Below, in pieces: positions 45,901-48,900 of a stretch of DNA of 64,000 bases. Origin of the DNA: Escherichia coli (GTDB lineage Bacteria; Pseudomonadota; Gammaproteobacteria; Enterobacterales; Enterobacteriaceae); the NCBI RefSeq assembly GCF_048403405.1, contig NZ_CP183129.1, one strand, 5' to 3'. A program made the position numbers. Position 1 is the first letter of the stretch, and the number at the start of each line of letters is the position of its first letter.

Positions 45901-48900
45901 ATAAACTTACGCATCGGGGATGTTTACATAGGATTCAGAATTACTTCTTCTTATAAATATTTGCCGTGCCGTGAATCTTATTGTCAGTTTGACCAGAGGT
46001 CAGCACCAACACATCAGCCCCTTTTTCATCGGCTTTTTTGATCAAATCTTCTTTCGCATCTGCGGTCGACATTTCATTACTGGTTGAAATATCACCTATT
46101 TTTTCATATTGCGATTCAACCTTTTCAAATTCCGCTTTGGTCATTAATTCTGCGGCATAGACATTGGTAACGGCAAACGCTAATGCACCGACTAACATTT
46201 TAGAGATTATTTTCATATTACGGCTCCAGAGTTGTTATCACACTATCACCCACCCACATTATTGGGTTGATTAATAATTAGTTCAGTCAGGGCATAAACG
46301 CCAGTAACCGGAAATAAGACACTTTGTGATCTCTCTCGCACCCGATTATTTTTGGTAGAAATATGATGAAGTTACTTCACTTTTTTATGGATGAAATCAC
46401 TATGGATCCTTTGCACGCCGTTTACCTGACCGTAGGACTGTTCGTGATTACTTTTTTTAATCCGGGAGCCAATCTCTTTGTGGTAGTACAAACCAGCCTG
46501 GCTTCCGGTCGACGCGCAGGGGTGCTGACCGGGCTGGGCGTGGCGCTGGGCGATGCATTTTATTCCGGGTTGGGTTTGTTTGGTCTTGCAACGCTAATTA
46601 CGCAGTGTGAGGAGATTTTTTCGCTTATCAGAATCGTCGGCGGCGCTTATCTCTTATGGTTTGCGTGGTGCAGCATGCGCCGCCAGTCAACACCGCAAAT
46701 GAGCACACTACAACAACCGATTAACGCCCCCTGGTATGTCTTTTTTCGCCGCGGATTAATTACCGATCTCTCTAACCCGCAAACCGTTTTATTTTTTATC
46801 AGTATTTTCTCAGTAACATTAAATGCCGAAACACCAACATGGGCACGTTTAATGGCCTGGGCGGGGATTGTGCTCGCATCAATTATCTGGCGAGTCTTTC
46901 TTAGTCAGGCGTTTTCTTTGCCCGCAGTGCGTCGTGCTTATGGGCGTATGCAACGCGTTGCCAGTCGGGTTATTGGTGCAATTATTGGTGTATTCGCGCT
47001 ACGCCTGATTTACGAAGGGGTGACGCAGCGGTGAGCAGATAATTTACTCTCTACGTAATCAACCTGATTTGCCGAATCCCGACCATCGGCGATGATAGCC
47101 CCCGTAATGCGTGGTCCTTATTTCCGATAAGTTTACTTGAGTCTTTAGCTTCCCATTTCAGCCCACTCTCCCCTGTGTGGGCTTTTTTCATTGCTCTGCC
47201 CCGTCCTGAATAGCCAAACAATGGCAATGTTTCACTTTGCAGGGATGATAATAAGGGGATCTGATTCAGAAGAGTTATGAAAAGTTGGACCGCCATCGAG
47301 GCCTCGAACCCCGTACCATACAACAATCCTGGTTGTCGTCTGCTCTTCCTGATGAGCTAATGGCGGTTTTTGATATGAGCCTTACAGCATATTTTCTGTC
47401 AGGCTTGAGTGCGATGCGTAAGATACAGAAAAGACCCCACACAAACATGATGGAATTATGATTTTTTTCATATGAATGTCAACCCACACATTCACAAAAC
47501 ATCTGCATGAGATCATTTTTTATACACCGTATAGCTGCGAAACCACTGCTGATGCTTTTTTAAGCGAAGCGTCGCCGATCACAACAAAATATCGGCGAAA
47601 AAGGCGGTGGAATGCCATTTGGCATACGGATATACAGATGAAATGATTACCTGCTTTGCGATTCACTCTCTGGTGGAATAACAACTCGCAGGTGGAACCC
47701 TTTCTGAACTAAAGAGTGTAGCGGATTTTAACGTGCTTATTTACAGGATAATATCTGTCACCTAATTCCTGGACTCTATTAGATATCCATTGATTTAATC
47801 GCGCATCATCTCTGTATGTTTTTACGTCCAGAACAGAGAGCAATAACATCACCAGTGATTCAGGAAAAACAGGGTAGATATTTTTTAAGTGTAATAATAA
47901 TCCATGCGCAAGCGCCTGCTTAATGGGCGCGTCGGTCTCCGGGATAGACGACATTTCGCGAAGCCATTTTTCCACATGCATACACTCTTTCCCTTTAGGG
48001 AAAAGTCTCAGCAAAGGCATATGGTGTTCAAGAAGAATACATTTGCAATCTGTTCGCACTGAATCGATAAACTGCACTAATTTCTTAAGCCCGGTAAAGC
48101 GTCCAGCCTGCACATTTGCTTTAATATCAAGAAACGCATCGTCCTGGTCATATACCCAAACTGTCCCTTTTTGATTTTCAAGTATGCGAAAAACAAACTT
48201 AACCGGGTGATCAGGGTAATCCATCCAGTCATAAAACCCAGGGAAATCATTAAACTGCACATTTATGGTGAGTGCGTTATCGTCTGACCACTCACAGTCT
48301 CGTACGGCAGCCATGAGATGAATGAGTTTGTCGTCATCGACTAAATCATCACGACAATCATAAGGATAATCATAATATTGTTTAATCAAAACCTTGAATA
48401 TATCGACACAGGAAACCAGGGAGCTTTTGATATCCTCTGGTAACTGATTGTTTTTAACCGTATTAAGTATGCTTTGTTGCGTATATGGCATCAAATTATT
48501 GTGCGGAGCTTTTAATGATATCATCGCGATCTCTCTTAAATAAAAATAAACGTCGCAGATAATAAAGCTCTGATTAAACCAGGCACTATCAGAAATCGCT
48601 CATAACTAACGTGTGAAGTATTGTGTACTGGAGGGAGTTAATTTAACAATTTGAATTTACGTTATAGGTTTTACTGCTACTTTGATATTATTTCGCTCTC
48701 CTTAACTAAAAAGTTAAGTGGAGAGCGAAGTTAATATGTTAAACCACAGGGTATTTATTAATTTTTTCAGTCTGTTAGTGTGCGATTATCGATAACAAAA
48801 CGATATTTCACATCTCCTCGCAGCATTCGCTCATAGGCTTCATTAATTTGATCGGCCCGAATCATCTCTATATCAGCCACGATGCCATGTTCGGCGCAAA

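Follow-up and report, generated by a model that had tools for sequence, protein, structure and literature searches.

A tRNA-like sequence of phage origin in the xtpA transcript is invariant across Escherichia while both overlapping reading frames break

The subject of this analysis is an 81-nt tRNA-like element on the minus strand of a 64,000-nt stretch of Escherichia coli DNA (contig NZ_CP183129.1, assembly GCF_048403405.1), referred to below as the window. The segment around it is the yahK-yahL-yahM/yahN region of E. coli and matches strain 746 at 100% identity. The element has been published before and is annotated as the tRNA-like sequence within the xtpA transcript: RegulonDB v12 credits XtpA to Muto, Goto, Kurita, Ushida, Soma and Himeno (Muto et al. 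2022, J Biochem 171:459, doi 10.1093/jb/mvac007), whose title names a tRNA-like sequence and a leaderless xtpA mRNA. In our assessment, with a probability of about 0.8, it is a domesticated solo copy of a phage argN-type tRNA gene, conserved by selection that would act at the RNA level. New here is the cross-species comparison, in which the element is invariant while both overlapping frames, xtpA and yahM, break. A preliminary description, which had taken the element for a degenerate tRNA-like cloverleaf at the yahM start, proves right in part; it overlooked the open reading frame (ORF) of xtpA on the same strand, a promoter with its start at the xtpA ATG, and the phage parentage.

The minus strand from 47366 to 47286 reads CCGCCAT-TA-GCTC-ATCAGGAA-GAGC-AGACGACAACCAGGATTGTTGTATGGTA-CGGGG-TTCGAGG-CCTCG-ATGGCGG-T-CCA. 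All the cloverleaf features listed in the preliminary description are present: a perfect 7-bp acceptor stem, U8-A9, a 4-bp D stem with GG in the D loop, a T arm with the loop TTCGAGG on a 5-bp stem that includes one G.U pair, and a discriminator U followed by CCA. The cloverleaf is the minimum-energy fold whether the 81 nt are folded by themselves or as part of a 309-nt transcript. ARAGORN calls the element at the same coordinates under the label tRNA-Ser(gga), so the detection tools do not all pass it over; this is the sole tRNA call in the window, and 60 dinucleotide-preserving shuffles of the window (3.84 Mb in total) gave none. The distance from the D stem to the T stem is 28 nt, compared to 23 nt in a class I tRNA, and the excess of about 5 nt noted earlier is therefore correct. 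Two pairing registers are open to this region, a 7-bp stem with a 6-nt loop, or a 5-nt linker followed by a 5-bp stem with the loop CAGGAUU, and U33 is replaced by A. The element thus possesses the top-level features of a canonical tRNA (7-bp acceptor, D arm with G18G19, TTCRA-type T loop and 3' CCA) and lacks a canonical anticodon arm, which would comprise one linker base at position 26, a 5-bp stem, a 7-nt loop with U33 and a variable loop of 4-5 nt. It overlaps the start of yahM, as had been described, with the annotated ATG inside the 3' acceptor strand and the GAGG of its putative Shine-Dalgarno sequence inside the T loop.

Table 1. Features of the xtpA locus, with positions in the window
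Feature	Position	Strand	Basis
81-nt tRNA-like element	47286..47366	-	ARAGORN; homology to phage/plasmid argN-type genes; conservation among Escherichia
Acceptor stem, 5' strand CCGCCAT	47360..47366	-	sequence, fold; invariant in phage family alignment
D arm GCTC-ATCAGGAA-GAGC	47342..47357	-	sequence, fold, phage family alignment
Aberrant anticodon/variable region, 28 nt	47314..47341	-	fold, ARAGORN
T arm CGGGG-TTCGAGG-CCTCG (GAGG of the loop also putative yahM Shine-Dalgarno)	47297..47313	-	sequence, fold
Acceptor 3' strand ATGGCGG (holds annotated yahM ATG), discriminator T, encoded CCA	47286..47296	-	sequence, annotation
xtpA ORF, running through the whole tRNA-like element	47275..47448	-	ORF list; K-12 xtpA b4845
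5' non-tRNA part of the transcript (xtpA codons 1-27)	47367..47447	-	homology bounds; pN/pS
-35 hexamer TTGACA of the xtpA/'yahM' promoter	47477..47482	-	consensus scan
-10 hexamer CATAAT, 16-nt spacer	47455..47460	-	consensus scan
Annotated yahM ORF, 81 aa	47051..47296	-	PGAP
Hairpin and T-run resembling a yahN terminator, inside the yahM ORF	47140..47190	+	sequence; sub-threshold Rfam alignment, hairpin then UUUUUU

Conservation was assessed in two samples. The first, obtained by scanning species-level genomes with a 21-mer from the element, gave four genomes, all of them Escherichia; the same 21-mer also matched 14 viral contigs, all of the phiP27 type and never of the chromosomal type. Because this sample depends on the element's own sequence, a second was drawn from YahN orthologues and the DNA surrounding them, chosen independently of the element. 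It yielded four or five further Escherichia lineages, including E. marmotae, in which promoter and element directly follow yahN, an arrangement that was not found in Salmonella bongori, Citrobacter and one further relative examined. In the Escherichia other than E. coli, yahN has diverged from that of the window strain by 0.46-0.54 at synonymous sites (pS) and 0.02-0.055 at non-synonymous sites (pN), and by its pairwise identities of 83-94% these are at least six distinct lineages. Seven lineages outside E. coli keep the element identical at 81/81 positions (E. albertii, E1V33, SCPM8794, E. marmotae and the loci L030 and L032/L034). Among 11 aligned sequences, variable sites amount to 13/52 in the promoter, 32/82 in the leader, 1/81 in the element and 34/40 in the first 40 nt downstream (Fisher p = 2e-10 for leader versus element), and interspecies conservation stops one base past the CCA. 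The single variant, fixed in O157:H7, converts the T-stem G.U pair to G-C; the stems, whose conservation had been proposed as a check, are kept across E. coli genomes. The locus is present in 5172 of 5426 complete E. coli genomes, and 93% of the E. coli records match the window exactly over the element, against 57% and 7% for the adjacent 81-mers. The comparison demonstrates purifying selection on the element sequence, independent of both ORFs.

Some details of the sampling deserve a remark. The 21-mer scan of species-representative genomes found four loci only, and other assemblies of several Escherichia lineages, E. marmotae among them, contain the 21-mer exactly; absences in that scan should be read with caution, either as representatives without the locus or as a scan that was not exhaustive. 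One E. marmotae-type sequence, L035, shows an extra C at the CCA end and a shorter promoter spacer. These were rejected as homopolymer errors of a poor assembly, as four other genomes of that type have the 81/81 element and normal spacing. In E. marmotae and related cryptic clades (L030-L035, L039-L042), yahN and the element lie in a different neighbourhood: an 875-881-residue protein, autotransporter-like in two loci, is encoded upstream of yahN, and a gene for a 1079-residue SNF2-family helicase ends just upstream of the element promoter. These neighbours occupy the positions of yahO/prpR and yahL/yahK.

An unbroken xtpA frame occurs only in E. coli and E1V33 (K-12, Nissle, O157, the window strain and E1V33). 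Its codon 4 is TGA or TAG in E. albertii, SCPM8794 and L030; in place of its ATG, L032/L034 have AGG and E. marmotae has AAG. Between species, pN/pS is 0.55-1.05 over codons 1-27, and codons 28-54, which constitute the element, show no change at ~20 synonymous sites. It is conceivable that the element matters only as these 27 codons of XtpA, with its tRNA likeness a leftover that has no role as RNA. The frames that are intact agree with this explanation, but five of the seven lineages outside E. coli have a broken frame and still the identical 81 nt, and the ~20 synonymous sites remain unchanged in every lineage against a yahN pS of ~0.5. Moreover, the N-terminal half of XtpA evolves nearly neutrally, and NCBIfam contains no family matching XtpA, YahM or YahL. 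Altogether, a role as peptide alone appears improbable.

The second overlapping frame, yahM, has TAG as codon 12 in O157 (O157:H7) and SCPM8794, carries two 1-nt deletions in Nissle, where PGAP annotates it as 'frameshifted', and cannot be aligned in E. albertii and E1V33. E. marmotae and related clades have no yahM region at all, as only ~35-45 nt separate the CCA from the yahN stop. These observations bear on the idea of a cis-regulatory yahM leader, in which the cloverleaf would hide the Shine-Dalgarno sequence in the T loop and the ATG in the acceptor stem. A GAGG 5 nt upstream of the ATG, inside the fold, suits such a leader; however, yahM is interrupted or lost in all the strains and species just named, and the element is unchanged where the yahM region is missing, which renders this reading very unlikely. 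We conclude that yahM is probably not a conserved protein-coding gene, and that, instead of being a gene, it may be the untranslated 3' portion of the xtpA transcript. The element had earlier been taken to weaken the case for a longer, 91-residue yahM ORF; that holds, but it is the whole yahM ORF that is weakened, its frame being broken or absent outside typical E. coli. Since both frames are broken or absent while the element is identical, the constraint lies on the nucleotide sequence and, most simply, on the RNA.

Homology establishes the middle 'argN-type' tRNA gene of the lambdoid/Stx-phage (Shiga toxin phage) cluster ileZ-argN-argO as the evident parent of the element. Identities to phage and plasmid argN-type genes are 77-86%, and in the phage collection several phages match at 76-85%. 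The 90-kb plasmid NZ_CP091840 carries a match of 86%, restricted to the element (E value 5e-21), which PGAP annotates as a 'tRNA-OTHER' between tRNA-Ile and tRNA-Arg. In phiP27, an 85% match (4e-19) takes up the space without annotation that separates ileZ from argO, immediately upstream of stx2e, and in PhiR49_2 the same position is occupied by a normal 77-nt tRNA-Arg(TCG) that is 77% identical to the element (1.5e-11) and scores 56 bits on the Rfam tRNA model. TL-2011c carries a TGG variant, the Yersinia phage YeP1 a 'pseudo-TTG', and mEp460 also matches. The family alignment shows no variation in either acceptor strand and hardly any in the D and T arms, and the element shares these strands and arms, the discriminator U, the CCA and an 8-nt upstream spacer. 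With the degenerate sub-lineage, represented by the plasmid, phiP27 and mEp460 copies, it further shares the 81-nt length and GAGCAGACGACA...TTGTTG; the aberrant region itself has AGACGACA...TTGTTG in common with the 81-nt phage and plasmid copies. The homology to the phage cluster extends over 89 nt (47374..47286), from the last ileZ base and the 7-nt spacer through the CCA. The 8 nt at 47367-47374 are still homologous to the ileZ-argN spacer, and their retention argues for a copy made at the DNA level rather than of a mature tRNA.

Compared to the phage genes, the element is a solo chromosomal copy without ileZ and argO, has its own promoter and a different anticodon region, carries G instead of T at position 7 of the T loop, and is invariant between species whereas the phage copies vary. 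No relic of ileZ or argO was found beside it by blastn with word size 7. Its neighbours are chromosomal and not those of a phage late region, and both the alignment and ARAGORN find no arginine anticodon (TCG) in a normal loop. In prophage-poor strains (K-12 derivatives, B and HB101) a sensitive search matches nothing but the element itself, which excludes every core E. coli tRNA gene as its parent. A search for the parent among E. coli tRNA genes, as suggested earlier, accordingly finds no similar core gene, but a parent of the phage argN type does exist. The earlier view of a tRNA-derived, non-canonical cloverleaf is borne out by this homology together with the failure of the Rfam tRNA model to match.

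The phage family shows variation of its own. On an identical acceptor stem the anticodon arm differs between copies (L006 2509-2585, L005 2512-2588, L007 2502-2579, L003 2501-2582): TCG (Arg) in PhiR49_2, TGG one loop base apart in TL-2011c, pseudo-TTG in YeP1 and a loop-less hairpin in the phiP27 type. This tRNA slot looks like one subject to anticodon switching and decay. About half of the phiP27-type 81-nt phage copies have CCTGG for CCTCG in the T stem, which produces a G-G mismatch (IMG/VR contigs L014-L027, and L003), and ARAGORN calls none of the phiP27-type 81-nt phage copies. These copies look like decaying pseudogenes, unlike the invariant chromosomal copy. The first gene of the phage cluster (L001 3926-4001, L003 2419-2494 and equivalents) is called tRNA-Met(CAT) by ARAGORN and tRNA-Ile (ileZ) by PGAP and the phage records; isoleucine tRNAs with a CAU anticodon depend on lysidine modification, and ambiguity between Met and Ile labels is usual for them. 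In addition, the cluster at L006 2470-2655 matches YrlA, an Rfam family of Y-RNA-like RNAs that contain a tRNA-like module, at 21 and 16 bits, below the threshold of 69; resemblance among tRNAs is probably all that lies behind this.

The preliminary description had also considered a pseudo-tRNA scar of integration. An inert, decaying relic of an old phage or island integration would accord with the phage origin, the AT-rich and variable DNA around the element, its failure on the tRNA covariance model and the degenerate look of the 81-nt phage copies, which ARAGORN does not call and about half of which carry the T-stem mismatch. However, the element varies at 1/81 sites across lineages with a pS of ~0.5 and no sequence at the locus is better conserved. 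It is a full-length copy and not a 3' half-site, has a conserved promoter of its own, and lies within 3 kb of neither an integrase gene nor a direct repeat or duplicated half-site. The attachment-site pseudogenes ptwF, pawZ and pauD of E. coli K-12 duplicate only the 3' part of host tRNA genes and lie at prophage ends. The element resembles them as a tRNA-derived, phage-associated chromosomal sequence, but differs in being full length, of phage rather than host type, promoter-bearing and not adjoining a prophage; no integrase or prophage genes occur within 3 kb, and no similarity to core tRNA genes was detected. A search of 50,697 phage records for relatives of YahL and YahM, as a mark of a decayed prophage, found none. 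A decaying scar is thus hardly credible.

Still less probable is a genuine decoding tRNA, such as the tRNA-Ser(GGA) of the ARAGORN label. Besides that call, the intact acceptor, D and T arms and the encoded CCA speak in its favour. By contrast, the Rfam tRNA model finds no match where the phage parent scores 56 bits, the long variable arm of serine tRNAs is missing, and PGAP never annotates the element as a tRNA in >5,000 genomes. Normal decoding is impossible because of the 5-nt linker, or the 7-bp stem with its 6-nt loop, and the A at position 33. Recent horizontal spread or gene conversion from prophage copies, in place of purifying selection, may likewise be set aside: prophage relatives are common in E. 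coli genomes (~2,100 extra places), but conversion is unlikely because the copies on prophages and viral contigs have another anticodon region (CGATAACAGGG versus AACCAGGA) and another T loop (GAGT versus GAGG), no viral contig was seen to carry the chromosomal type, and both flanks have diverged in place right up to the element edges.

In the explanation that we favour, selection at the RNA level on a domesticated phage tRNA copy, the element is a solo copy of the middle, argN-type gene of a phage late-region cluster (Q or a methylase gene, ileZ, argN, argO, then stx or lysis genes). It belongs to the 81-nt lineage with a rebuilt anticodon arm, in which decoding has been lost. Adjoining yahN, in Escherichia only, it has its own near-consensus sigma-70 promoter, with transcription probably beginning at or near the xtpA ATG, and in E. 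coli the same RNA would also be translated into the 57-60-residue XtpA peptide. Selection on the RNA itself, and not on XtpA or YahM, would hold the sequence constant. The invariant top half (acceptor, T arm and D arm) and the encoded CCA would be recognised by the tRNA machinery, with ribonuclease P (RNase P) cleaving at C1 and 3' trimming to the CCA. This would release a tRNA-like RNA of ~81 nt or control the fate of the xtpA transcript. Because the top half is invariant and the conserved block coincides with the mature tRNA ends, we infer that the element is probably a substrate, as yet putative, for RNase P and 3' trimming. At even odds, in our estimate, the ancestral, genus-wide product is a promoter-driven, ~81-nt tRNA-like non-coding RNA, on top of which XtpA is a young ORF, and the xtpA phenotype could then be partly or wholly RNA-mediated. 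The same reading, equally balanced, would have the ~81-nt RNA invariant since before E. coli, E. albertii and E. marmotae split.

Several points weigh against selection on a tRNA-shaped RNA. The Rfam tRNA model RF00005 gives no match at E<=10, either in a scan of 1.1 kb or in one restricted to the 101 nt around the element (gathering threshold 29 bits; the phage argN of PhiR49_2, used as positive control, scores 56.2 bits). This failure arises from the aberrant anticodon/variable region; it makes 'degenerate' an apt word for the element, as the preliminary description had it, though the Infernal/Rfam check that it proposed gave no tRNA match, and it means that recognition by tRNA enzymes is not guaranteed. 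The folding energy is only ~1.9 standard deviations better than that of shuffles (z = -1.9), which is unremarkable. Pairing in the stems of the family is at 94%, but with a single compensatory pair it cannot be told from that of shuffles; covariation is uninformative here because the stems hardly vary. Independent non-E. coli lineages are modest in number (~7), and three of them were found with the 21-mer from inside the element. Some constraint at the DNA level is also conceivable. Finally, the phenotype of xtpA is reportedly ascribed to the XtpA peptide; compared to that emphasis, the comparative data point to the RNA as the conserved unit.

Regarding xtpA itself, the K-12 RefSeq record NC_000913.3 places the gene (b4845) at 345252..345434 as 'putative transcriptional regulator XtpA'. 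It maps to window positions 47448..47266 and spans the whole element, which is identical to K-12 at 81/81 positions together with the leader and lies at 345,334-345,414 (+) there. The ORF encodes 57 residues in the window strain, where TAA ends it, compared to 60 residues in K-12, Nissle and O157. The sequence is said to be similar to an arginine tRNA found in pathogenicity islands and phages, deletion reportedly raises the sensitivity to aminoglycosides, and XtpA is said to positively regulate GcvB. Direct RNA-RNA pairing with GcvB was considered as a route to this published link and was rejected, as both energies and seed helix are at control level: the duplex energies of the xtpA RNA or of the element with GcvB are no better than those of shuffles or other genomic windows, and the longest seed helix with GcvB region R1 is equalled by 99.5% of control windows.

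The promoter of xtpA matches the consensus at 11/12 positions (TTGACA-16 nt-CATAAT) and is therefore a near-consensus sigma-70 promoter, the -35 hexamer of which is intact in all the Escherichia lineages examined. The -10 hexamer ends 6 nt before the xtpA ATG (47448), the A of which comes 7th after the hexamer, a spacing consistent with a leaderless transcript. The published work concerns the same locus and sequence, with the ATG at the transcription start predicted here (Muto et al. 2022). A literature search found nothing further on xtpA, on tRNA-like sequences with GcvB, or on ileZ/argN/argO. A reporter study describes a yahM promoter and transcription start site repressed by integration host factor, at coordinates not mappable to the window (preprint 10.1101/2025.05.13.653802).

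Among known systems, the combination of a tRNA-like top half, no functional anticodon arm and a translated frame in one RNA recalls transfer-messenger RNA (tmRNA, SsrA), by analogy. The two have no sequence relationship: Rfam gives no tmRNA match, and the element lacks the G3.U70 alanine identity pair, its acceptor having U73, C2:G71 and G3:C70. The xtpA ORF passes through the tRNA-like part and not through a separate loop, and it starts at a 5'-terminal ATG. SgrS/SgrT and RNAIII/hld likewise combine a small ORF with an apparent RNA function under separate constraints, with the ORF less widely conserved; however, those RNAs base-pair with target mRNAs, whereas the xtpA RNA has no unusual complementarity to GcvB and its constrained part is tRNA-shaped.

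As for the flanks, the Rfam scan of the locus otherwise gave only sub-threshold chance matches (microRNA, L31 leader, PrrF and an internal ribosome entry site) and a terminator-like match at 47140-47190. yahM and yahN are listed as a convergent excludon (PMC12288877). The stretch from yahL to xtpA is AT-rich (33-44% GC), which suggests acquired DNA, and yahL is absent in Nissle-like (B2-type) strains, where ~850 nt between yahK and 47695 are missing (window 47695-48770; L008).

Taken as a feature in its own right, the element is a rediscovery of a published and annotated sequence and adds little alone. The comparison across species reveals a tRNA-shaped sequence of phage origin that is conserved across the genus as strictly as a real tRNA, while two protein frames come and go over it, and it argues for reconsidering the status of yahM as a protein-coding gene. 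Were the RNA the functional product, the locus would clearly exemplify how a host can domesticate a phage tRNA relic as a non-coding RNA, on which a new small protein gene later arose, and the xtpA deletion phenotype would need re-examination. E. coli would then possess an unrecognised tRNA-shaped RNA that works with the tRNA-binding machinery, for example as a processing substrate, a decoy or an acceptor.

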